From Cyanobacteria bacterium P01_F01_bin.150 (GTDB lineage: Bacteria; Cyanobacteriota; Cyanobacteriia; CAKZMO01): DNA of 64,000 nucleotides. The stretch is from the NCBI GenBank assembly GCA_039189765.1, contig JBCCYL010000015.1, forward strand, positions 1 to 64,000, read 5' to 3'. Shown here in pieces: positions 2,208 to 15,872 of the stretch. The translations under genes and the position numbers were made by a program. Each line of letters starts with the position of its first letter. The stretch's first letter is position 1. The notes under the pieces are model-generated. The model was not told the origin of the DNA and ran no database searches. It was given only the letters and a program-made list of their open reading frames with translations.

Positions 2208-2317
2208 ACCTCGTTCCCAGTGCCTCGTTGGGAAGGTGCTTCTGAGCCAGAGGCTCAGGGCGGACAACGGAGCCGGAGTCTTCTTTTGAGATGCTCAGCC
2301 GGAGTCTGGGTACCAGA
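2208..2317. repeat. Degenerate cyanobacterial multi-hairpin dispersed repeat (CTCGTTCCCAG...CTGGGAACGAG type)
   Basis: CCTCGTTCCCAG...TGGGAA hairpin, CTGAGCC/GGCTCAG hairpin and terminal CTGGGTACCAG. Confidence 0.55.
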
Positions 2318-2353
2318 ATTTCCTGTCCAGTAGCAAGAACGAAGAAACGAATC

Positions 2354-3250
2354 ATGCGACTTCTCGGTACTTTTCTGATTGTGATATCGGCGATCGCCTT
2401 TGGGGCTATGCCGATCTTTGCCCACTTTGCCTATGGGGCTAGTGTTACTCCCCTAACAGCTTTATTTTTTCGATTTGCGATCGCCGCTCTCTGCCTTTGC
2501 AGCACTCTGATTATCCACAGAGTTCCCCTGCCTAATCCACGGAATTTCAAAATCCTGATCCTGTTGGGCGGAGTCGGGTTTGTGGTGCAATCTATTACCT
2601 TTTTTACGGCCTTGACATTTGTATCCCCTGGCTTGGTGGTATTGCTGTTGTATCTGTATCCGACGATTGTGGTGGGTCTTTCTATCTTTTGCCTCAACCA
2701 GCCCAGCAGTCCTACTAAATTAATGGCGTTGGCGATCGCCCTGTTGGGAACTGTGTTGACTATTGGCCCGGTGGAAAAAGCCCAGCTACTGGGGGTAGCC
2801 TTGGGTCTGATTTCTGCTGTGACCTATGCCGTTTATGTGTTGGTGGGCGATCGCGTGATGCAAGAGGAATCCCCTTTGACGACTTGCACGGTGATGATTT
2901 CGGCGGCGGCCCTTGTGTTTGGCAGTATGGTGGCTATTCAAGGCGTGAGTTTGCCGACTAGTGTGGTTGGCTGGATGGCGATCGCCGCCCTGGGGTTAAT
3001 TTCCACGGTGATCGCCATTGGCGCTCTATTTGCTGGAATTAAGTGTTTGGGGGCTACCACTGCATCGATGCTGTCAACGTTGGAACCAGTGGTCACCATT
3101 GTGCTGGCGTTTTGGCTTTTACAACAACCCATTACGATTATGCAGATCATTGGTGGAGCGCTGATTTTGATGGCTGTTATGCTTTTGTCACTGGAAAAAC
3201 AACTCCCAAAATTATCCACGGCAGGTTTTGGTGGTGACTCGGATGCATAA
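2354..3250 (+). CDS. DMT/EamA family transporter
   Basis: About 10 hydrophobic segments in two EamA repeats; LLYLYP and STLEPV motifs; ATG 2354 preferred as start. Confidence 0.9.
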   Translation: MRLLGTFLIVISAIAFGAMPIFAHFAYGASVTPLTALFFRFAIAALCLCSTLIIHRVPLPNPRNFKILILLGGVGFVVQSITFFTALTFVSPGLVVLLLYLYPTIVVGLSIFCLNQPSSPTKLMALAIALLGTVLTIGPVEKAQLLGVALGLISAVTYAVYVLVGDRVMQEESPLTTCTVMISAAALVFGSMVAIQGVSLPTSVVGWMAIAALGLISTVIAIGALFAGIKCLGATTASMLSTLEPVVTIVLAFWLLQQPITIMQIIGGALILMAVMLLSLEKQLPKLSTAGFGGDSDA

Positions 3251-3259
3251 ACTTCTCAA

Positions 3260-4201
3260 TCAGTAGCCTTGGTCTCGATTAACAATATGAGCTGGAGTGA
3301 TACCTGCTTCGGTTTGAGTGATGGTATCAGCGATATAGCGAACCGTTAATTGTGGCTGACTAATACAAGCGATGTGGGGCGTCAAAATAATGCGAGGATG
3401 ATCCCAAAACGGGTGATTGGAAGGCAATGGTTCAGGTTCAAAAACGTCTAAACAGGCTCCTGAAAGCTGGCCTGAGGCCAAGGCGCTAACTAGATCATCT
3501 TCTATCAAATGTTGACCTCGACCAACGTTAATTAGATATGCGCCCTTTGGTAAAGAAGCAAATAGTTTACATGATAGAATTCCTTGCGTTTGGGAGGTTA
3601 ACGGTAGCAGACATACGATTACAGAACATTCACTTAAAAAAGTATTGAGCTGCATATCGCCATGAAAACACTCCACACCGTCAAGCGTCTTAGCCCGTCG
3701 ACTCCATCCCCTTACTGATAGCCCCAGAGTAACAAGGGATTGGGCAACGGCTGCTCCCATTGCTCCTAAGCCTAGGATGCCCACAGTAAAAGGTTGTTTT
3801 TGTAGATCGGGTAGTTCTTGCCAGCGGTGCGATCGCTGTAATTCTTGATAATCTGTTATCTGAAGCTTGAATGCTAAAATAGCCCACAGCACGTATTCCA
3901 CCATTGCCCTGGGTAACTCATCATAAACAGCACGGACGATAGGAACGTGGTGGGGTAAATGTGGGTCACGCAGGATATGGTCAACCCCAGCCCCCAGGGA
4001 GCAAATCAATTGCAGGTTAATCAATTGTTGGATGATACCCAATGGGGGCCACCATGCCAGTACAATATTGATATCATCGTAATGTCCACACTCTGGCCAT
4101 ATCCGGACATCCCAAGTCGACTGTGTCTGCTTCAATATTTTGACAACCTCAGTAAGCCATAAATCTGCTGGATCAAGGGTGGTGAGAACGAGGATTATCA
4201 T
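3260..4201 (-). CDS. ghrA: D-2-hydroxyacid dehydrogenase (glyoxylate/hydroxypyruvate reductase A-like)
   Basis: GAGVD, GLGAMG, GWSR, NVGRG, DVFEPEP and TPHIA motifs; Arg/Glu/His triad intact. Confidence 0.85.
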   Translation of the reverse strand: MIILVLTTLDPADLWLTEVVKILKQTQSTWDVRIWPECGHYDDINIVLAWWPPLGIIQQLINLQLICSLGAGVDHILRDPHLPHHVPIVRAVYDELPRAMVEYVLWAILAFKLQITDYQELQRSHRWQELPDLQKQPFTVGILGLGAMGAAVAQSLVTLGLSVRGWSRRAKTLDGVECFHGDMQLNTFLSECSVIVCLLPLTSQTQGILSCKLFASLPKGAYLINVGRGQHLIEDDLVSALASGQLSGACLDVFEPEPLPSNHPFWDHPRIILTPHIACISQPQLTVRYIADTITQTEAGITPAHIVNRDQGY

Positions 4202-4289: not shown

Positions 4290-5501
4290 CTAGACTATGA
4301 ACTGGGGCAAACTGGCTACGGCCATCTCAATCTCCTTGCGTTGGCCTAACGTATTCAACCGTAAAAAGCCCTCTCCGCAGGATCCAAAGACACATCCTGG
4401 AACTCCTACAATTCCGGTTGACTCTAGAAGAGCTTGGAAAAAGTCCCAAGATGAGAGTGTATCAGGAGCCTTAACCCAGACAAAAGGACTATTTTGAGAG
4501 CCAAAACATTCCAGCCCAATATCTTCTAGGCCATGCTGGAGTAACCGAGCATTTTGCAAATAGTAGTCTACGACTGCCTCGCACTCTTGTTGTCCAGCCT
4601 CGGATAGAGCAGCGATCGCCCCTGCTTGGGCTACGTTAGACGTTCCCCAAAACTTAATGGCATGGCGAATACGCCATAGTTCGTTCAATTCTCCCGCAAC
4701 TGTATCTTGGATGGTAAGGGATTTAGGAATAACACACCAACCAACCCGCAAGCCAGTAAACCCTGCCCATTTGGAAAAACTGCCAATTTCGATGGCACAT
4801 TCTTTGGCACCTTCTATTTCATAGATGCTGCGAGGAATAACTGGATTGGTAATAAAAGGGCTGTAAACAGCATCAAATACAATGACCGTTTTCGTGGCCC
4901 TAGCATAATCGACAAAAGCCTGAAGCTGCTGACGAGTGGCCACAGCCCCCGTGGGATTATTTGGAAAACACAGATAGATTAAATCAACAGGCTGTTGAGG
5001 AAGTGGAGGAAAAAAATGGCTGTCTTCTGAACAAGGTAGATACACTAATGGACGGCCTGCTAGCATCGTACCTTCTACAAAGGACGGATAGGCTGGATCC
5101 TGCACTGCAACCGTATTCTCTAAGGCAAACAGGTCTTGAACGTTAACCGATGCAGATTGAGCACCGTCGCTAATAAAAATATCATTGGACTCTAGCTCAA
5201 CCTGTAGATTATTCCAGTAATAGCGGTCGCAAATAGCTTGGCGGAGTGCTGCACTGCCAACAATATCTTCATAGCCTGTATAAGTCTTTGAGTGCCCTAG
5301 CCGATGGGCACTCTTAACTAATTCCTGAGTCACTGTAGGGGATAACGGTTGCGTTGTATCCCCGAATGCCATCATATAAATGTGAGCCTGGGAATGGGTA
5401 GAACGATATGCTTCTGCTCTACCCCACACTTTGTTAAATACAATTTGAGTGTATGTTGCATCACCTGTTAGTTGACTAAGCCTCGAATTTTTTGTCGCCA
5501 T
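4290..5501 (-). CDS. PLP aminotransferase, LL-diaminopimelate aminotransferase (DapL) fold with divergent substrate pocket
   Basis: CFPNNPTG, FDAVY and SFSKWAGFTGLR (PLP lysine) motifs; residues that bind the distal end of DAP are altered. Confidence 0.85.
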   Translation of the reverse strand: MATKNSRLSQLTGDATYTQIVFNKVWGRAEAYRSTHSQAHIYMMAFGDTTQPLSPTVTQELVKSAHRLGHSKTYTGYEDIVGSAALRQAICDRYYWNNLQVELESNDIFISDGAQSASVNVQDLFALENTVAVQDPAYPSFVEGTMLAGRPLVYLPCSEDSHFFPPLPQQPVDLIYLCFPNNPTGAVATRQQLQAFVDYARATKTVIVFDAVYSPFITNPVIPRSIYEIEGAKECAIEIGSFSKWAGFTGLRVGWCVIPKSLTIQDTVAGELNELWRIRHAIKFWGTSNVAQAGAIAALSEAGQQECEAVVDYYLQNARLLQHGLEDIGLECFGSQNSPFVWVKAPDTLSSWDFFQALLESTGIVGVPGCVFGSCGEGFLRLNTLGQRKEIEMAVASLPQFIV

Positions 5502-5562: not shown

Positions 5563-5654
5563 CTCAGATTTTGCACTTGTTGTTTTGTGGGGGCCAAACC
5601 GCTCCCTCAAAACAACATATCTCTTTAGCAAGAGGTACAGGTGCAATATCTGAG
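5563..5654. mobile_element. 92-bp MITE-like element nested in the above
   Basis: 18-bp imperfect terminal inverted repeats CTCAGATTTTGCACTTGT / ACAGGTGCAATATCTGAG; internal hairpin GTTGTTTTG...CAAAACAAC. Confidence 0.7.
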
Positions 5655-5801
5655 CTTCTGACGAGTTGTGTCGGCTTCGCTAACACAACTCGTTCAAAAG
5701 GCAAGGAACACGTCGTGTTTTTTGAGGAGCCTCTAACGAGTTGTGTCGATTTCGCCGACACAACTCGTTCAACATGCAAGAAACACGTCGTGTTTCTTAG
5801 G
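5652..5801. repeat. Two tandem 75-bp double-hairpin units
   Basis: Units start at 5652 and 5727; each has an ACGAGTTGTGTCG...ACACAACTCGT stem plus an AACACG-T-CGTGTT stem. Confidence 0.85.
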
Positions 5802-5882: not shown

Positions 5883-6368
5883 CTAGTTGCTTTTCAGTTT
5901 TTCGCGTCTTAAGCGTTCCTGAATGTAAGGCGATAATTGATAGGTTGACAGTATCTCCAGAGAAATATATGCAGCACCTTTAATACAACCGAGGCATTTT
6001 GTTGAATTACATCGACAGTCGAATCCTTGATCCATTGACCACTCTGTAGAGGGATAAAAGAAAGTTAGCTCATCTCCAGGATTAATTTTTTGCAGGACGG
6101 TCACCGTTCCCTTGATAGGGTTAAAGTGAACATTGGGCTCACACCCATGGTTAATGTACTGAAGAAATTCAGGGTCTAACATGATGTGTTCGTAATCACT
6201 TTTTTGAACTGTTAAATAGTTAGGTTCCGTATAAATTTTTTTGGCTCCAAAAGTGCTGAACAATTCCCCCGGCATAAATGCTGTTGTGGCATGTAATGCT
6301 TTTTCTCCAGTTTTTTTACATTCTACAATCTTGGCAAAGTGGGGAACTTGGATCTCAGTAGTTTGCAT
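5883..6368 (-). CDS. Small stand-alone SET-domain methyltransferase with post-SET Cys motif (possible small-molecule methyltransferase)
   Basis: INHGCEPN, GDELTFFYPSTEW and CRCNSTKC motifs; ATG 6368 preceded by AAGGA. Confidence 0.88.
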   Translation of the reverse strand: MQTTEIQVPHFAKIVECKKTGEKALHATTAFMPGELFSTFGAKKIYTEPNYLTVQKSDYEHIMLDPEFLQYINHGCEPNVHFNPIKGTVTVLQKINPGDELTFFYPSTEWSMDQGFDCRCNSTKCLGCIKGAAYISLEILSTYQLSPYIQERLRREKLKSN

Positions 6369-6908: not shown

Positions 6909-9900
6909 TTAGCTGTTATCACACACGGATGATAAAGCATCATCAAGCAATAAGCGGTCATGGCGATCGCCCACCAGCACTACTATCCCATCTGCCACCA
7001 CGGTCAATTCCTGGTCCTCAAACACCGACTGAGAAACAAGGGGCGCATCCTCGATATGGACCGTTTCGTGATGATAAGACTGTTCAGCTTGTGGATGCTT
7101 ACTTTGCTCTGAATCCTGGGCATTTTCATTGGAGTCAATGGGCAATAAATCCTGCCATAGAATCACGGAGCCAAGGGCCGTCGTTGGACTCGTGGGCAAT
7201 CCGCCGCGACCGGAAATAATAAATTGGCTCAGGGATTGGGTATATCGTTCCTGACAGCTACGAACCACCTCTGGAGCCGCAAACACAGTTGGCAGATCGG
7301 TTTGATCTTCGCTTAAGTCTAGGTCAGGGGTTTGAAAAATCACTTCGCCGCTGAGTTCAGGATTATTTTGGGAAATGGCGGTAATATCATTGCTGCTCAA
7401 TGCGGCAGGGTCGAGTTCATCGGGATTTGTCGTCCCCAGCAACGTGGTTAGATCCTCCCGACTGCGGATGGAAAACCCAAAGATGGCCCTTAGGATAGCC
7501 TCGGAATCCGCATCCACGGTACTACCCTGCAATGCCTGTTCAACAAAACCAGGCCGATCCTGCAATACCTGTAGCAGGCCCGGTGTGGTGATCACAATTT
7601 GGCCGCCGCTGCCGTCAAAGGCATTGGCGGTAATATCCGTATTGCTGTTGGCAGTCGTCGCTAGGATATAGCCGTTCTCCACTGTTAAGAAAATATTGCC
7701 GCCATCGCCCCCGCTGCCCGTGGTGCCTGCGCTGGTGGTAATCTGGCTGCCTGCATTCATTTCCAGAGCATCCTGCAGGCTGAGGGTAATATTGCCGCCA
7801 TCGCCAGAGTTAGTTTCTGAGGTGAGCCGAGCGCGATCGCCCAGCTCAACGGCACGGGAAGTAATTTCAATATCCCCGGCGCTGCCGTCCCCGGCGCGAC
7901 TGGAGATATTGGCACGGGTCTGTAGCTGTAGCAGCTCTGGGATAGAGAAAATAAGATCACCTCCAGTTCCAGAGGCAGTTTCTGAGGTAATCCGACTCTC
8001 CTCGGCCAGCACCATCAATGGGGCTGTAATTTCAATATTTCCGGCAATGCCGCTGCCTACCGAACTGCTGGAAATACTGGCATTGGGCTGGAGCAGGATG
8101 CGCTCGCCCACGGTAAGGCGAATGGTGCCGCCTTCTCCCGACTCGGTGCCCGAGGCTAAGCGGCTATTTTCGTCCAAAATCAGCACAGGGGAGACGACTG
8201 TAATATTTCCGGCCCGACCATCGCCGGAACGACTGGAAATCTCGGCATTGGTTTGTAGCAGGATCTCGTCTTGGCTAACGATACGGATATTGCCCCCTTG
8301 GCTTTGCTCTTCGGTTGTTTGTCTAGCTTGAGTCGAGTTGGAATCGCGAGAGGAGGTAGAGCGGGAAAAAATAACGTCGGAGGGGCGATCGCTCGCATTG
8401 GCTTCGGATGCAATGCGACTATCTTCTGCCAAGTTAAGGGACGCTACTGAAAGGTTGATATTGCCAGCTACCCCTGTTTCGGATGCACTGCTGGAAATAT
8501 TGGCCTGGTCTGCCAGTTGCAGCCGTTCTTGACTGGTGACGCGAATATTGCCTCCTTGCCCTGATAGGGTTCCTGAGCTAAGGCGGCTGTTTTGCCCCAA
8601 GATAAGCGTAGGGGCTGTGACCTGAATTGGACCAGCCCGACCATCATCAGAGCGGCTGGAAATAGTGGCATTGGACCGTAGCCGTGCGGTCTCTTGGCTA
8701 TCTAGCGTCAGTCTGCCTCCTCGCCCAGAGGTAGTGGCAGAGGTCAGACTGCTTTGATTCCCCAATATTAAGTTACCGATGGATAGGGTAATGGGGCCTG
8801 CGATGCCAGATTCAGATTGGCTGGAAATACTGGCATTGCGTTGCAGTTGCGTGGTGTTTTGAGTGTTAACGGTAATGGCGCCGCCCTCTCCAGAGGTGGT
8901 AGCGGAGGTTAGACGGCTATCTGCACCCAAGGTTAGAGTGTTAGCAGATACCTCAATAGCGCCTGCAACTCCATCTTCAGACTGACTGGAAATCGTTGCG
9001 TTGGGCTGTAGTTCTACGATACCTTGGCTGGCGATCGCAATGCTTCCCCCTTGACCTGATGTAGTTTCAGACGTGAGACGACTCTGATTGCCTAGGGTTA
9101 AGTTGGCGGAAGACACATCAATATTGCCTGCTCTACCCTCTTCTGATTGACTGGACACCGCTGCTCGATTCTGGAGTTGCACATCACCTTGGCCATTAAT
9201 GGTGATATTTCCTCCCTGCCCAGTGGTGGTGGCGGAGGTCAGGCGACTGTCGTCTGACAATACAAGGTCGGAGGTCGATAGGGCGATATTTCCGGCTTGA
9301 CCAGTAGTGGATGCGCTGGAAATCTCAGCATTCGGTTGAAGTTGGGTGGCGGTGGCGATCGCCAAGCTAATATCGCCCCCTTCCCCAGAGTCAGTACCAG
9401 ACGTTAAGCGACTCTGATTACCCAAGGCCATATTCGCTGCGGATACGCCAATGCTGCCAGCAGTCCCATCGTTGGATTGACTGGAAATCGTTGCGTTGGG
9501 CTGTAGCTCTACGATACCTTGGCTAGCGATCGCAATGCTTCCCCCTTGACCTGATGTAGTTTCAGACGTGAGGCGACTGTTACTCTCTTGCAGTAAATCA
9601 GTGATAAATAGAGCGATATTCCCGGCTTGGCCGCTAAGGGATGCACTGGAAATTTCGGCATTAAGCTGTAGATCCACTGTGCCTTGGCTGGTAACCGTAA
9701 TGGTTCCGCCTTGCCCTGATGTGGTTTCAGAGGTGAGACGGCTTTGCTCGCCTAAGCTTAAGTTGGCGGAAGATACGTTAATATTGCCTGCTCTACCCTC
9801 TTCAGATTGGCTGGACACCGCTGCTCTATTTTGGAGTTGCACATTGCCCTGGCCATCAATGGTAATATTACCTCCCTGTCCAGAGATAGTGGCAGAGGTC

Positions 9901-12900
9901 AGACTGCTGTCGTCTCCCACTATAAGGTCAGAGGTCGATAAGGTAATATTTCCGGCTTGACCACTAGTGGAGGCACTGGAAATCTCAGAGTTTGGCTGGA
10001 GTTGGGTGGTGTTGGCGATCGCCAGACGAATATCCCCCCCTTCCCCAGAGTTTGTGCCAGAGGTGAGGCGACTTTGATTGCCCAAGGTTAGATTGGCGGT
10101 TGATACCTCAATATTTCCAGCGGTGCCATTGTCAGACTGGCTGGTAATGCGGGTATTGGGGTCAAGTTGGATTGCGGTTTGGCTAGTAATAGTGATATTG
10201 CCGCCTTGGCCTGAGGTGGTTGCAGACGTCAGGCTGCTTTGTTCGTTAAGGGTCAGGGTTGATGTGGACAGGCTGATCGTTCCAGCAGTGCCAGAGTCGG
10301 CTGCACTAGAAATTTGAGCATCGTTTTGCAACTGGGTAGTATCTTGCACCGCTAAGGTAATATTTCCTCCAGTACCAGAGTTGGTGGCGGAGGTCAGGCG
10401 ACTTTGATTGCCTAATGTTAATGTTCCAGTGGATACATCGATATTTCCAGCGGTGCCATCGTCAGACTGGCTGGAAATCTGAGTATTTTGTTGCAGTTGT
10501 ACATCGTCTTGGATGGTGAGGCTAATATTGCCCCCTTGTCCTGAGACGGCTTCTGATGTGAGACGACTTTGATCGGCTAGTGTCAAATTGGCGGCAGTGA
10601 GATCAACATTACCTGCTATTCCGGTTCCGGCAGCGCTGCTGGAAATTTGAGCATTATTGGCCAGTTGGGCATTTTCTTGCAAATTGACGGTGATATTCCC
10701 GCCTCGACCGGATGAGGTAACTTCAGAGGCAAGGCGGCTAGAGTCCGCGAGGGTAAGGGTGGAAGCCGTTAGGTTAATGTTGCCAGCAGTTCCATCTCCA
10801 GCGCTACTGGAAATCTCGGCGTTGTTTCGCAACGCTACGTTATCTTGGATCGTGAGAACAATATCTCCCCCTTGTCCCTCATTAGCCTGAGAAGTAATGC
10901 GACTGTCTTCACCTAGAATAAGGGACTGAGCATTAAAGTTCATTGTCCCAGCGGAGCCTTCCCCTCCAGTGGCTTCTACCGATACCGATACTCCATCCCG
11001 GAGGGTGATGGAATCGGTCGAATTAACGCTTAAGTTACCCGCCGTACTGGCCAACACATCGGCAATAATTGTCTCGATTTCGATTTCGATTTCGACTTCT
11101 GGGGTTCCAATTCCGCTAAAGCGTTCAATCCTAAACTCAGAATTTGTTTCTGCGTTAATTTCGTCAAGAAGAATAGCGTTATTAGCAGTGAGACTAATAT
11201 TTCCCCCTTGAATCTGGGTTGAACTCAGATCGATATCGATGGCGCTATCCGTAATTTCCCTAGATCGCTCCAACGAAAAGATACCCGCGCTTCCATTCAA
11301 AATGGAGTCCTCTCCCAGTTGAATGGCTCCTGCTGCTGTCAGCGTAATATCTCCGCCATTTGCAGTAAATTCAGTTTGTCCGGTTCGATCTCCTTGTCCC
11401 TCTGCGGAGGCATCTGCTAGCGCCCGAGCCGAGGCATCAATCGAGGAGGACGGAGAAAAATCAGCAGACAAATAGGCATCATGGCGGATAGTCCCGATAT
11501 CAGATTGGCGATCGCTCACCCCTGCGCTAACTGCTGTACTGAGAGAAATCGTCCCACCATCGGCGATCGCATCTGCCTTTCCCCCTGTCGTATTTCCCCC
11601 TGGATTGTCACTCAAGGCGGCCCCATCGGCAAACGCATCAACTGATCCATTTAAATCATTGGTTTCCAGAGTGCCAATGTTTGAGGCTGCTGTCACATCC
11701 CCAGTGCTGACTTGAGTGGAGAGGGCGATCGCGCCTCCAGTGCTGCGAATATCGAGGGCATTCCCCCCAGTGGCAATTGCGCTCCCCCCATCTGGTTCAG
11801 CCGCAATGGACCCATTGGCAATTCCCTGTGCGGAGGTTGGCGCTTCAATTTCTTGGAGTTGAATGGTGCCAATGTTGGCAGAATCTGCGATCGCCCCTGT
11901 GCTCGCAGTTGTTGAGAGCGTAATACTTTCTCCAGTGCTATTAACCGTCTCAACGGTACCTCCAGTTGCCACTTCTGCACTCTGTCTATTTTCATCCAAA
12001 CGGGAAGTGTTAGCATCAGCATCAGCCCTAGCATATGTAGACGCAACAATCCTAGCTGTTTCGAGAGTGCCAATATTTGCCCCTTCCCTAAAATCAGAAC
12101 CAGGTTGAATCTCGCCAGTAGTCACTTGAGTGGCAAGGTCTAACTGACCCGCCTGGTTTTCTAGTTGGGTAACGATACCTCCATTAGCATTGTTGCTGGC
12201 CTCAGCCAATGTACTTGCCACTACTCCACCATCAATCCAAATGTTTTGGGTTTGCAGGGTTCCAATATCAGAGCGTGCTGCAATGGTTCCTGTATTGACT
12301 TGGGTGGAAAATTCAAGGTCTGCCCCGTGGCGAGCCACATTGATGATGGTTCCTCCGGTTGCCTGGGTTCCCTCGCTGAATTGGGTTACTCCGGTAACAG
12401 TAGAAGCATAGACCGTATCAGTTTGAAGGATGCCGACGGTCACATCGGATGCAATATCTCCAGTTGTAACCGCTGTTGAGAGGGTGATTGGTCCTCCCCG
12501 ACCCGATATGTTACGGCTAGATGCCCCATTCGCAGCCCCTGCTTGGCCATCATTTTGCGTGGGGGCTGACTCAGCGGTTCCAAAAAATGAGGATCGAGTA
12601 AGGATGCTGGAAATCGCATCACTGGTGGTACTAACATCCACCTCAGAGCGGATCGTTCCAGCTCGGACTATCCCAATTGGGGGCACAATGACCAAACCAG
12701 CCCTAGGTAAAATATTTGTCATGGTCACGTTTGTGGCAGCGGTAATTCCCCTGCCTTGGGCCGCGACATTAGCAACGCTTCCGCCAGTCGTTTCCCCTCC
12801 ATTCCCGCTATTCGTTAGGCCCACGTTGCGGTCTATATCCCCCTCCGCAGCAACCTCGATGGATGCAGTGGCCCGAGCATTGACATTTGCCGTGGCCTGG

Positions 12901-15872
12901 GATCTGATATTCGCACTCCTCCTTTGTCGCACTATAGTTCCCCTATTGATGGTGTTGATATTGCCAATCATCGCCTCTATCGCCAAATCACCCGTCGTCG
13001 CTTCTGTCGAAAGCGTGACCGCACCACTTTCAACGGTCACACCATTAACGCCCGTCCCTGTTGCCGTTCCACCATTACCCGTATTCTCAACCTGTACACC
13101 TCCGGCATACACATTTGCCCTCGCGGAAAATCCGTTAAAGCGGGCTGCTGCATCAATGCCGTAGGCTGACGCATTTAGTGGGGTCACGCCCAGGGTTGCA
13201 ATATCCGCAAATGCAGAAATAGTGCCTGTTTCACTTTGAGTCGAAAGTGTAATTGCTCCAGCCTGAATCGAAACATCTGTAATGCTGCCCCCCGTTGCGA
13301 CCCCTCCATTCCCGGTATTGACTGTCGTATCACCTCGGGTATTCACATGCACAGACGCATCGGCATTGGCATCAACGGCACTGAAGGCGTAAGTAGTAAT
13401 GGGTCTATCATAGTTACCATAGAGGAGTTCCCCTTCAGCTCGAAGCAAGCCAATATCAGACTCAGCGTCAATCTGACCAGACTGGACCTCGGTGTTGAGG
13501 GCGATCGCTCCCCCCCGATGCTCAATATTCTGGATACGCCCCCCCGTTGCTATCCCACCGCTTCCCTGGTTGTTAACATTTACATACGAGAAGCTATCGA
13601 CATTGACACGGGCAGAGGCATATGCCCGTACAGCAACTCTACCAGAGGCATCAATACCGGCAGTCCGTAAGGTGCCAATGTCAGCCCCAGCTATGATGTC
13701 TCCCGTGCTAACGTCAGTGCTGAGGCGGATAGTTCCACTGCGATTTACCACATCACTAACTGTGCCTCCGGTGGCATTACCCGCATTAATCGTGTTGTTG
13801 ATATCAGTGGGGTAATAGAAGGAGGGGCTAACATTGACATCTGCGGTGGCATTGGCCAGTGCAGTGACATAGGCGGATGAACGGAGTTCTCCAGTTTGAA
13901 TAGTGCCGATTTGGGTGCGATCGCCATCAGATTGGGCAACGATATCACCTGTTCTCACATCGGTAGAGAGGGTAATAGTTCCACCTCTGGATACTGTAGT
14001 GGCATTTCCGGCGATCGCCTCACCGATATAGCTCCCTCCTCCATAGGGAGAGTAAAGAGGCGCACTTGCATTAACAAATGACGTTGCAGATGTATTGATA
14101 TCTGTTGTACTGATATTGCCGACAGACTCACTAACTGATTGGCTTGCCCGATCCACCCGAGTTCTCAAGGTAATACTGCCGCCTTGGGCGATCGCACTGG
14201 CAGACCCCATCTCTACTCGCTCGGTCCCATCTGGTTGAATAGACCGTTGCTCCCCAGCATTTGCCGTTGCCGATGCAGAAGTATCTAAAAAGAAAGCGTC
14301 AATGGTATCTCCCGCCAAAATGGTGATATCTCCACCAAAGGCACGAGTATCGGTTCCCCCATCAGCAAATGCGGTAGTGATAATATCCGCTTCAACCTGA
14401 ACTCCATTGCGGGCATCAATAACAACGTTGCCACCCCTGGCAATTGCCCCATCAAACTGGGATATAGCAGTATCGATCGCCCCCACCTGAATATCGCCAC
14501 CCTGTAATCCTAGGTTGGGTTGATACTGATTGGTCAAAAAGACCGTTCCACCTGGATTGCTAATGCTACCGACTTGAATATTGGCATTGGTTCCAGTGGC
14601 CCCAACGATAAGATCGGGAAAACTCTCAGGATTGGTGATGCTAGGAAGGCCCACATCTGCCATTCCTGCTCGAATATCTAAGGTGGGTTCTGCACTGCCA
14701 TCGATCGCCACCACCGTTTCCCCATCGGAGAGCGTCACCGCCTCTTGCAATGAATTGCCCAGGGTATCCGCTCCCGTGATCGTAATCGTTCCTGGCACTC
14801 GGACTTGCCCCCCTGCCAAAATATGGAGAGACGCGCCTTCATATGCCTGAAACTCTACATCGCCACTGGCCCGAATCACCGGATCGTCTTCACTCAGCAA
14901 CGGTCCCAAGCGCCTTCCCAGAGAACTAATCCGCTCCACTCGAAAGTCACGACCTGCGGCAAAATGGGCATCGGCGATCGCCCCATCCCCAGACCGCAAC
15001 ACCAAATCCCGTCCGGCAACTAGTCCACTTTCTGGATGATTTAGCGCAAAGATATCAATGGACTCACGGCCTCGTATGCGCAGATTCCGACCCGCCGCTG
15101 CTAGAAACGGCGTGGTGGGCGTATCGCGAATTTCCACCGTGTCCTGCGCCCGTAGTCGTAGATTTCGCTCGGCTTGCAGTGTGCCCGTGAGAGTGAGGCG
15201 ATCGCCATCCAACGTCAGCGTATCCCCCACCACCAATTGCCCACGGTTGATGATTTGACCGCCATCGTCCTGGAAATTGAAATCATAATTGCCATCTTGC
15301 AATCCAGGAGTCAGATTAATGGTCAGTAAGGGCGGAGCTTCTGGGTTAACCGCACTAAAGACCTGACCATCCGCAAACTGAAACGCATCTGCGGTAGTGG
15401 CGATAAACGAACCAGAAATATCGAGTCGGGCATTTTCACCAAAGACAATGCCATTGGGATTTAAGAAAAAGAGATTCGCGTCTCCGTCCACTCCCAGGGT
15501 GCCAAAAATATTTGATATATCATTGCCTGTGACCCGACTTAAGATATGCTCAATGCCACCGGGGCTACTAAAGTACACCCGCTCAAAATCATTGATGTTA
15601 AAGTCCGAAAAGCTATGGAATAGAACGGTAGCTCGAATGGCACCCCCATCGATTAGATCGCCCTGCGCTCCACGAATCGTTACATTTGGAACCACCACCG
15701 AGCCTTCACTCCCCAAGGTCTGGTCCGGAAGAATTTGGGCTGATGCCAGAGGACTGGAGCCTGCCACAATACAACTGGTCAGCAGTAGCGTTTGCATGAC
15801 CAGCGTGGTCGATGTTTGCCTATTGCTGGGCAATGGGCTTTGGGATAGCAGACGGAGGAAAAAAGGCCACAT
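6909..15872 (-). CDS. Filamentous haemagglutinin-family (TpsA-like) large exoprotein, 2987 aa
   Basis: Signal-like segment ending ASAQILPD; haemagglutination-activity domain (LFHSFSDFN, NLFFLNPNGIVFG); 55-aa beta-helix repeats; C-terminal FIISGRGGLP motif. Confidence 0.92.
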   Translation of the reverse strand: MWPFFLRLLSQSPLPSNRQTSTTLVMQTLLLTSCIVAGSSPLASAQILPDQTLGSEGSVVVPNVTIRGAQGDLIDGGAIRATVLFHSFSDFNINDFERVYFSSPGGIEHILSRVTGNDISNIFGTLGVDGDANLFFLNPNGIVFGENARLDISGSFIATTADAFQFADGQVFSAVNPEAPPLLTINLTPGLQDGNYDFNFQDDGGQIINRGQLVVGDTLTLDGDRLTLTGTLQAERNLRLRAQDTVEIRDTPTTPFLAAAGRNLRIRGRESIDIFALNHPESGLVAGRDLVLRSGDGAIADAHFAAGRDFRVERISSLGRRLGPLLSEDDPVIRASGDVEFQAYEGASLHILAGGQVRVPGTITITGADTLGNSLQEAVTLSDGETVVAIDGSAEPTLDIRAGMADVGLPSITNPESFPDLIVGATGTNANIQVGSISNPGGTVFLTNQYQPNLGLQGGDIQVGAIDTAISQFDGAIARGGNVVIDARNGVQVEADIITTAFADGGTDTRAFGGDITILAGDTIDAFFLDTSASATANAGEQRSIQPDGTERVEMGSASAIAQGGSITLRTRVDRASQSVSESVGNISTTDINTSATSFVNASAPLYSPYGGGSYIGEAIAGNATTVSRGGTITLSTDVRTGDIVAQSDGDRTQIGTIQTGELRSSAYVTALANATADVNVSPSFYYPTDINNTINAGNATGGTVSDVVNRSGTIRLSTDVSTGDIIAGADIGTLRTAGIDASGRVAVRAYASARVNVDSFSYVNVNNQGSGGIATGGRIQNIEHRGGAIALNTEVQSGQIDAESDIGLLRAEGELLYGNYDRPITTYAFSAVDANADASVHVNTRGDTTVNTGNGGVATGGSITDVSIQAGAITLSTQSETGTISAFADIATLGVTPLNASAYGIDAAARFNGFSARANVYAGGVQVENTGNGGTATGTGVNGVTVESGAVTLSTEATTGDLAIEAMIGNINTINRGTIVRQRRSANIRSQATANVNARATASIEVAAEGDIDRNVGLTNSGNGGETTGGSVANVAAQGRGITAATNVTMTNILPRAGLVIVPPIGIVRAGTIRSEVDVSTTSDAISSILTRSSFFGTAESAPTQNDGQAGAANGASSRNISGRGGPITLSTAVTTGDIASDVTVGILQTDTVYASTVTGVTQFSEGTQATGGTIINVARHGADLEFSTQVNTGTIAARSDIGTLQTQNIWIDGGVVASTLAEASNNANGGIVTQLENQAGQLDLATQVTTGEIQPGSDFREGANIGTLETARIVASTYARADADANTSRLDENRQSAEVATGGTVETVNSTGESITLSTTASTGAIADSANIGTIQLQEIEAPTSAQGIANGSIAAEPDGGSAIATGGNALDIRSTGGAIALSTQVSTGDVTAASNIGTLETNDLNGSVDAFADGAALSDNPGGNTTGGKADAIADGGTISLSTAVSAGVSDRQSDIGTIRHDAYLSADFSPSSSIDASARALADASAEGQGDRTGQTEFTANGGDITLTAAGAIQLGEDSILNGSAGIFSLERSREITDSAIDIDLSSTQIQGGNISLTANNAILLDEINAETNSEFRIERFSGIGTPEVEIEIEIETIIADVLASTAGNLSVNSTDSITLRDGVSVSVEATGGEGSAGTMNFNAQSLILGEDSRITSQANEGQGGDIVLTIQDNVALRNNAEISSSAGDGTAGNINLTASTLTLADSSRLASEVTSSGRGGNITVNLQENAQLANNAQISSSAAGTGIAGNVDLTAANLTLADQSRLTSEAVSGQGGNISLTIQDDVQLQQNTQISSQSDDGTAGNIDVSTGTLTLGNQSRLTSATNSGTGGNITLAVQDTTQLQNDAQISSAADSGTAGTISLSTSTLTLNEQSSLTSATTSGQGGNITITSQTAIQLDPNTRITSQSDNGTAGNIEVSTANLTLGNQSRLTSGTNSGEGGDIRLAIANTTQLQPNSEISSASTSGQAGNITLSTSDLIVGDDSSLTSATISGQGGNITIDGQGNVQLQNRAAVSSQSEEGRAGNINVSSANLSLGEQSRLTSETTSGQGGTITVTSQGTVDLQLNAEISSASLSGQAGNIALFITDLLQESNSRLTSETTSGQGGSIAIASQGIVELQPNATISSQSNDGTAGSIGVSAANMALGNQSRLTSGTDSGEGGDISLAIATATQLQPNAEISSASTTGQAGNIALSTSDLVLSDDSRLTSATTTGQGGNITINGQGDVQLQNRAAVSSQSEEGRAGNIDVSSANLTLGNQSRLTSETTSGQGGSIAIASQGIVELQPNATISSQSEDGVAGAIEVSANTLTLGADSRLTSATTSGEGGAITVNTQNTTQLQRNASISSQSESGIAGPITLSIGNLILGNQSSLTSATTSGRGGRLTLDSQETARLRSNATISSRSDDGRAGPIQVTAPTLILGQNSRLSSGTLSGQGGNIRVTSQERLQLADQANISSSASETGVAGNINLSVASLNLAEDSRIASEANASDRPSDVIFSRSTSSRDSNSTQARQTTEEQSQGGNIRIVSQDEILLQTNAEISSRSGDGRAGNITVVSPVLILDENSRLASGTESGEGGTIRLTVGERILLQPNASISSSSVGSGIAGNIEITAPLMVLAEESRITSETASGTGGDLIFSIPELLQLQTRANISSRAGDGSAGDIEITSRAVELGDRARLTSETNSGDGGNITLSLQDALEMNAGSQITTSAGTTGSGGDGGNIFLTVENGYILATTANSNTDITANAFDGSGGQIVITTPGLLQVLQDRPGFVEQALQGSTVDADSEAILRAIFGFSIRSREDLTTLLGTTNPDELDPAALSSNDITAISQNNPELSGEVIFQTPDLDLSEDQTDLPTVFAAPEVVRSCQERYTQSLSQFIISGRGGLPTSPTTALGSVILWQDLLPIDSNENAQDSEQSKHPQAEQSYHHETVHIEDAPLVSQSVFEDQELTVVADGIVVLVGDRHDRLLLDDALSSVCDNS

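Follow-up and report, generated by a model that had tools for sequence, protein, structure and literature searches.

The described enzymes nearest to the protein studied here are LL-diaminopimelate aminotransferase (DapL) and ALD1. ALD1 of Arabidopsis (PDB 4fl0) is itself a DapL paralog that has taken on a new substrate, and is known as a lysine aminotransferase (PMC9309667). A small stand-alone SET-domain protein is linked to amino-acid-processing enzymes in the BurB/BurI/BurD/BurE route, as set out in the accessible portions of PMC7496086 and PMC12542666; according to the latter, BurB is a proven methionine S-methyltransferase that does not methylate MTHB, holds methionine through main-chain contacts and binds its amino group. 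In their accessible text, two reviews or introductions report BurB only in Burkholderia.

4-Dimethylsulfonio-2-hydroxybutyrate (DMSHB) is an osmolyte and the direct precursor of DMSP. In the plant Wollastonia (Melanthera) biflora, Rhodes et al. are said to have described, in 1997, the transamination of S-methylmethionine (SMM), the same reaction as the step proposed below, and there it reportedly leads to DMSP-aldehyde. Decarboxylase-independent plant routes have been considered to warrant future study (PMC11464771). The accessible text of PMC11306096 describes the accumulation of DMSHB in a filamentous marine cyanobacterium as well as the DsyB and DsyG/DsyGD route, which likewise occurs in filamentous cyanobacteria, and whose aminotransferase, 2-oxo-acid reductase and S-methyltransferase have counterparts in the cassette described here that would give the same DMSHB.

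Here we analyze a 64,000-nucleotide stretch of DNA (the window) from Cyanobacteria bacterium P01_F01_bin.150. An earlier note, made from the letters of the window, had pointed to a DapL paralog with altered distal-site residues. We propose that this gene belongs to a cassette that probably serves not lysine synthesis but the production of a small molecule that is methylated and carries a positive charge, and that may be related to DMSP; we do so because its pocket is rebuilt and because it lies between a methyltransferase gene and a reductase gene. In the article texts and listings searched, we found no paper on the cyanobacterial clade or the cassette; the supplements of PMC11306096 and PMC7496086 may list BurB homologs.

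Results

The aminotransferase keeps the DapL fold and an intact PLP site

The gene at 4290..5501, on the minus strand, is an intact open reading frame of 403 amino acids encoding a DapL-family (type I) PLP aminotransferase paralog. Aminotran_1_2 is the sole Pfam match of the protein, which passes the cut-off of TIGR03542, the family model for plant-type DapL (434.8 bits against 364.7; the canonical copy in the same genome scores 611.1). The solved structures nearest to it are the DapL enzymes of Verrucomicrobium, Chlamydomonas, Arabidopsis and Chlamydia, together with ALD1. An AlphaFold model (pLDDT 93.8, built from a 101-row alignment) matches DapL structures (PDB 3ei6, 3qgu and 6oxm) with TM scores of 0.90–0.92 at 36–38% identity, and DapL and ALD1 structures taken together with scores of 0.88–0.92. 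As the earlier note had claimed, the PLP and α-carboxylate machinery is kept, in the form of FPNNPTG (residues 179–185), DAVY (210–213), SFSKWAGFTGLR with K244 and R252, and R381 within GFLR. Moreover, Y77, N181/N182, D210, Y213, K244, R252 and R381 are invariant in 80/80 sequences of the subclade to which the protein belongs (subclade A, below). Fold, PLP site and α-carboxylate residues are thus what the protein has in common with DapL. When the aminotransferase was searched against plasmids only six matches were returned, at ~40% identity and named DapL where annotated. Identity with the guanitoxin enzyme GntC was rejected: a score of 157 bits, where the cut-off is 415, indicates no more than a generic likeness.

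A rebuilt distal pocket

We take E97, K129 and N309 to be the Arabidopsis numbers of the DapL recognition residues, and Tyr37 and Tyr152 to be further substrate-contact residues. In the 4290..5501 protein all five are replaced, Glu97, Lys129, Tyr152 and Asn309 by Ile80, Gln115, Phe141 and Trp285, respectively; E110, K142 and N321 of Chlamydomonas DapL (positions counted along the alignment) align with I80, Q115 and W285. The motif changes are exactly those that the earlier note had listed (GYEDIVG, SDGAQSA, YPSF and KFWG), and alignment with characterized DapL proteins and ALD1 indicated that the distal Glu, Lys and Asn are not conserved. Among the roles that the note had assigned at this site, that of the tyrosine is presumed. 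Those of the glutamate, lysine and asparagine stand, these being the three substrate-recognition residues named in the accessible text of PMC3102117. The statement that the N-terminal YLF is absent was half right: the Tyr is replaced by I20, but in the window protein F22 still occupies the Phe column. A short insertion brings in a tyrosine, Y17, that 77/80 subclade-A sequences share, and an acidic residue that the note had missed, E78, is gained in 79/80 subclade-A sequences, as against Gly in 70/78 DapL-like ones.

Residue counts were made on pooled homologs of 330–470 amino acids, after removal of rows more than 97% identical, and each row was assigned to a group according to its whole-sequence identity with reference proteins. 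Across the 80 rows of subclade A, the window protein included, Q115 and W285 are each found in 80/80 and F141 in 78/80, and column 80 is mostly hydrophobic. The 78 DapL-like rows have Lys (77/78), Asn (78/78) and Tyr (78/78) at columns 115, 285 and 141, and Glu (60/78) at that of I80. Subclade B (28 rows) has Gln or His at 115 and Trp in 25/28 at the 285 column. Both the K129 and N309 columns vary elsewhere, the Lys being kept in 107 and the Asn in 113 of 131 diverse DapL-family representatives (330–480 amino acids, drawn from 149 new ids); the Gln/Trp pair at 115 and 285 occurs in none of these 131. The pocket changes are neither chance nor decay.

The pocket would have lost the groups that serve the distal carboxylate (Lys129 and Tyr152) and an N–H-bearing ammonium (Glu97 and Asn309), and would have acquired an acid (Glu78) and a wall of aromatic residues (Trp285 and Phe141) in exchange. 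An aromatic wall with an acid is the usual recipe for holding a fully methylated cation. The same design of aromatic residues and acid serves cation binding in BurA-A, according to the accessible text of PMC7496086. The linked BurB-like SET gene and the gained E78 favor the part of the earlier proposal that invoked a methylated cationic side chain held by cation–π contacts; that side chain may be either that of S-methylmethionine or an N-methylated amine.

Both ALD1 and the window protein have the motif SDGAQS (Lys129Gln), a likeness that the note had also missed. Unlike the window protein, with its Ile, Phe and Trp, ALD1 keeps the Glu97, Tyr152 and Asn309 columns (GYGLEQG, FPAY and SFNG), and Glu78 is new in the window protein. 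Glu97 and Asn309 of ALD1 would be expected to bind the ε-amine of lysine; because ALD1 shares Lys129Gln yet keeps these two residues, plain lysine fits the rebuilt pocket poorly. By its residues, the 4290..5501 protein would work like DapL and ALD1 in its chemistry while matching the distal signature of neither.

A separate clade beside the canonical dapL

The host genome (10.6 Mb, 99% complete) has three DapL-type genes, namely that at 4290..5501, a 53% identical paralog on contig C123, and, on contig C80, a canonical dapL of the kind that the earlier note had suggested looking for, with YLFPE, GYGPEQG, SDGAKCD, YPVY and KFNG. A separate canonical copy is also present in 4/4 other cyanobacterial carriers tested. 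A fifth carrier tested, the gammaproteobacterial Parabeggiatoa MAG, has no canonical dapL at E 1e-60; in this genome dapD was found above the cut-off.

In a quick maximum-likelihood tree (96 rows, SH-aLRT support only, no outgroup), 58 paralogs form one clade (support 100) that stands apart from cyanobacterial DapL and splits into subclades A and B. The clade is patchy in distribution, being found in 3/401 class-wide genomes and, in two carrier-rich families, in 11/52 and 15/144, counts that take in incomplete genomes. Named carriers, which include Moorena, Okeania, Symploca, Roseofilum and Lyngbya, are mostly marine or brackish taxa. Named homologs carry the annotation LL-diaminopimelate aminotransferase. 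For the 4290..5501 gene this public label is probably wrong, because a canonical dapL is present elsewhere in the genome; the separate clade and a conserved neighborhood unrelated to lysine synthesis likewise bear out the doubt that had been cast on a plain dapL annotation. In contrast to DapL proper, then, the gene co-exists with a true dapL and sits in a methyltransferase/reductase cassette.

A cassette with a methyltransferase and a reductase

The minus-strand order in the window is SET methyltransferase (5883–6368), aminotransferase and GhrA-like dehydrogenase (3260–4201). The last of these (3260..4201; 313 amino acids, PF02826), a GhrA-like D-2-hydroxyacid dehydrogenase, scores 260 bits against NF012013, below the cut-off of 403; its catalytic Arg, Glu and His motifs are intact, and it has the sequence GWSR, which we take to be the motif of NADPH-preferring GhrA.

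We surveyed the neighborhoods of 38 loci, the window included (29 of subclade A and nine of subclade B); these loci are kin, and the counts that follow are not counts of independent events. The SET gene is found in 26/29 subclade-A loci, on the same strand as the aminotransferase. Two of the three loci that lack it stop at contig edges, and for one of these (L252) a SET gene lies on another contig, ahead of an aminotransferase fragment; the subclade-A carrier G171, which has no SET gene at its locus, has no SET match genome-wide. The other partners in subclade A, always on the same strand, are the dehydrogenase (19/29) and an IPNS-type Fe(II) oxygenase (10/29), with one or both in 27/29. The H-x-D...H triad of these oxygenases, which are of the IPNS/ACC-oxidase type, is invariant, and Lys/Asn-Ala-Leu stands at the site of the RxS motif. 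As Lys is at the Arg position in 9/10, binding of 2-oxoglutarate may persist, and for the same reason we set aside a reading in which DMSOB replaces 2-oxoglutarate in the oxygenase reaction and DMSP results. Subclade-B loci have the dehydrogenase in 8/9 and, in 7/9, a double Rossmann methyltransferase and a class II aldolase; look-alikes of this methyltransferase include histamine and carnosine N-methyltransferases, which we treat as leads only. Since each of the two subclades comes with a methyltransferase unrelated to that of the other, methylation is arguably part of the job.

Converging on the cassette is an EamA/DMT transporter gene (2291..3250, plus strand; PF00892), possibly an exporter, which failed to group with the EamA genes of two other loci (L007 and L224) and is not a conserved neighbor. 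Nor is the gene at 304–2178, for a 624-amino-acid FAD oxidoreductase of the DAO family that matches no known family closely, conserved as a neighbor across the 38 loci; it has one paralog, 23% identical, on contig C14. Between the SET and aminotransferase genes (5652..5798) lie two 72-nucleotide hairpin-bearing palindromic repeats that resemble each other at 86%. Their family accounts for 116 blastn segments genome-wide, and they are probably unrelated to the enzyme. At 6909–15872 the window encodes a repetitive protein of 2987 amino acids that looks, by eye, like a filamentous-hemagglutinin-type exoprotein.

The SET partner is closest to BurB among solved structures

The SET gene (5883..6368, minus strand) encodes a 161-amino-acid methyltransferase (PF00856), a small stand-alone SET domain with post-SET; an upstream GTG would lengthen the frame to 6407. 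BurB is its best solved relative both by sequence (E 1.6e-8; 77.7 bits with a 22-row profile, the next scoring 41) and by fold (TM 0.70, 22–24% identity). Uncharacterized SET clusters of ascomycetes are structurally closer, at TM 0.88–0.89 by a method different from that behind the 0.70. We compared the BurB active-site residues R70, H72, T73, S88, H93, Y124, V130, M132, R133 and H138. Most members of the SET family keep the columns of T73, H93, Y124, the S-T-E just after Y124, and R133, with Gln at the R133 position in the window copy. The SET protein differs from BurB at H72, S88, V130, M132 and H138, and it keeps the canonical SET motif YINH where BurB has LLLH. Because BurB binds methionine by main chains, the specificity of the SET protein is not readable from these residues.

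The SET family also occurs without the aminotransferase, with matches in 14/52 and 25/144 genomes of the two carrier-rich families, several of them with stops. Its other neighbors are genes for LysA-like decarboxylases, a flavin amine oxidase, FeeM-like acyltransferases and a second methyltransferase. Because the family adjoins LysA-like decarboxylases and N-acyltransferase-like genes, this analysis of its neighbors suggests that the SET product still has its α-amino group. Pairing with a decarboxylase parallels that of BurB with BurI in the accessible text of PMC7496086.

Several arrangements of SET genes recur. A SET gene, a Rossmann methyltransferase and a LysA-like decarboxylase occur together at six loci (L254, L256, L257, L261, L262 and L263; compare BurB with BurI, or FlvH with FlvG). 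At L294:2451–6538 and L295:4827–8934 a flavin amine oxidase, SET, a 194-amino-acid gene and a LysA-like decarboxylase form one run, which echoes the Spartina route of methyltransferase, decarboxylase and oxidase. At L268, L272, L277, L286 and L287 a FeeM-like GNAT N-acyltransferase gene comes after SET, in many cases in a decayed state. The host genome has two more SET copies, L083:7800–8246 (contig C50) and L084:7438–8064 (contig C142), one broken by a stop and one intact and stand-alone.

Other clusters of the aminotransferase clade

The host genome has a second cassette, on contig C123 (L081:4739–9595), with a double histamine-N-methyltransferase-like enzyme, a class II aldolase, a divergent GhrA-like dehydrogenase and a subclade-B aminotransferase, a gene set that recurs in 7/9 subclade-B loci; we speculate that it might make a dimethylated imidazolium acid. 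An expanded cluster (L208:6398–13537) holds SET, an 807-amino-acid double CaiB CoA transferase (presumably a DddD-like architecture), an Fe(II) oxygenase, a Sulfotransfer_5 protein and the aminotransferase, with a GBBH/TmpA-like dioxygenase on the opposite strand. Two divergent members of the clade are accompanied by EgtD-, FcoT-, PhyH- and methyltransferase-like genes (L215) and by two TauD genes, a threonine-aldolase-like gene, CmcI and GNAT (L217). The genome G416, considered below, has a subclade-B aminotransferase and a SET-family gene.

Discussion

We put at about two in three the probability that the enzyme, a DapL turned to a new use, has as its substrate for transamination a methylated, cationic amino acid of some kind. 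Somewhat short of an even chance, and offered tentatively, is the narrower proposal that its substrate is SMM made by the SET neighbor, with D-DMSHB following. The SET enzyme would methylate methionine with SAM to give SMM, the aminotransferase would turn SMM into the 2-oxo acid DMSOB, and the GhrA-like enzyme would reduce DMSOB to D-DMSHB; the Fe(II) oxygenase, where present, would tailor the product further. We infer every substrate and the order of the steps. SMM is favored because it is a glutamate in which a sulfonium replaces the distal carboxylate, the glutamate isostere among such cations; the loss of Lys129, Tyr152, Glu97 and Asn309 and the gain of Trp285, Phe141 and Glu78 would be the refit expected for it. 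Consistent with this route, the closest solved relative of the SET neighbor is BurB, a methionine methyltransferase, and in the genome G416 a DsyGD-like gene of 499 amino acids is directly followed by a D-2-hydroxyacid dehydrogenase gene (L232:366–2907), in keeping with the reductase predicted next to dsyGD. DMSHB accumulation in a filamentous marine cyanobacterium fits as well. Against it, this reductase beside the DsyGD-like gene shares only 27% identity with the dehydrogenase of the window, the SET protein is only 22–24% identical to BurB and keeps the canonical Asn-His motif, DMSOB is chemically unstable, and the GBBH/TmpA-like dioxygenase at L208 and the TMLD-like and aldolase genes at L217 point to trimethylammonium chemistry. 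According to the accessible text of PMC11306096, a predicted MTOB reductase adjoins dsyGD, but the reductase beside dsyGD had no activity in vitro.

The cassette differs from the Bur route in having no decarboxylase or aldehyde dehydrogenase, and in that its aminotransferase is an α-amino-acid class I enzyme followed by a 2-hydroxyacid dehydrogenase; in the window cassette we found neither the set of SMM decarboxylase, amine transaminase and aldehyde dehydrogenase nor an MTHB methyltransferase. It differs from the DsyG route in that its methyltransferase is of the SET rather than the Rossmann type and probably acts first. The host genome has no close DsyG homolog (best tblastn matches 25–29%, in the N-terminal domain only), and a lone PF04115 gene was rejected as DsyGD, since it is not beside a methyltransferase and a DsyGD-like query gave no tblastn match at E 1e-6.

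SET enzymes classically methylate lysine, and the substrate could instead be a free basic amino acid (lysine, ornithine or diaminobutyrate) N-methylated on its side chain by the SET enzyme to a di- or trimethyl form; an ALD1-like aminotransferase refitted for methylated ammonium would then yield the 2-oxo acid, and dehydrogenase and oxygenase would finish a betaine- or carnitine-like hydroxy acid. We consider this main rival rather unlikely, although the canonical NH motif is kept in the SET protein, GBBH/TMLD-like genes occur at L208 and L217, and subclade B is paired with a histamine/carnosine-N-methyltransferase-like double enzyme. FlvH, which would serve as a precedent, is presumably a SET protein. 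With FlvG this fungal enzyme turns lysine into dimethylcadaverine (accessible text of PMC8902786), and ALD1, the lysine aminotransferase of PMC9309667, has SDGAQS too. Weighing against N-methylation, all lysine methyltransferases score 41 bits or less with the SET profile that gives BurB 77.7, a Trp in place of Asn309 would be expected to make the site for the distal amine of diaminopimelate shorter, and GBBH-like genes (family F20) are found in only 3/38 loci, that at L215 being an unannotated 166-amino-acid piece. More remote is DapL isoenzyme activity, or ALD1-like transamination of unmodified lysine to pipecolate that is N-methylated later: the TIGR03542 equivalog cut-off is passed, homologs are labeled accordingly, and K129 and N309 vary in ~18% and ~14% of diverse DapL-family representatives, but all three literature-named recognition residues are replaced, ALD1 keeps Glu97 and Asn309, the clade is patchy (3/401 class-wide genomes), and a canonical dapL co-exists in the host and in 4/4 other cyanobacterial carriers, the gammaproteobacterial carrier having dapD. 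We give it very little weight.

The order of steps could also be that of algae, with transamination of methionine to MTOB, reduction to D-MTHB and methylation of MTHB by the SET enzyme to DMSHB. This sequence, in which the aminotransferase substrate is neutral, sidesteps the unstable DMSOB, matches the known transamination pathway and suits the hydrophobic I80/F141/W285 pocket. It seems improbable given that the conserved, gained E78 suits a cation, that the decarboxylase and N-acyltransferase partners of the SET family imply an amino-acid product, and that BurB binds the methionine amino group and leaves MTHB unmethylated (accessible text of PMC12542666). The sulfonium might, finally, be a leaving group, with γ-elimination or ACC-synthase-like ring closure of SMM releasing DMS directly; either the dehydrogenase or the ACC-oxidase/IPNS-like oxygenase would then deal with the C4 fragment. 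In favor of this, ACC synthases are related through the class I fold, and the oxygenase that accompanies the aminotransferase belongs to the IPNS/ACC-oxidase type, with Lys/Asn-Ala-Leu at the RxS site; yet the fold is that of DapL (TM 0.92), with no ACC synthase among the top matches listed, Lys at the Arg position of 9/10 oxygenases means that 2-oxoglutarate binding may persist, and more loci have the dehydrogenase (19/29) than the oxygenase (10/29), as would suit an ordinary 2-oxo acid. We regard such chemistry as highly unlikely.

A methylation-first route from methionine through SMM and DMSOB to D-DMSHB was not found in our literature searches. That the cassette is such an undescribed route to DMSHB in mat-forming marine cyanobacteria, and holds the first gene for SMM transamination, we advance with a shade more reserve than the SMM proposal itself. 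The wider clade would then comprise aminotransferases for onium amino acids that derive from DapL and that have twice been joined by a methyltransferase, the two being unrelated.

At a minimum, more than 100 proteins of one clade are mislabeled as a lysine-biosynthesis enzyme, and this clade flags an unstudied pathway to a small molecule in benthic cyanobacteria. Should SMM prove to be the substrate, BurB-type chemistry extends beyond Burkholderia, and the aminotransferase is a candidate enzyme for the transamination step long inferred in plants. The marine DMSP/DMS cycle would then have a new route and new producers, with a cassette that surveys built on dsyB, mmtN or dsyGD would have missed.
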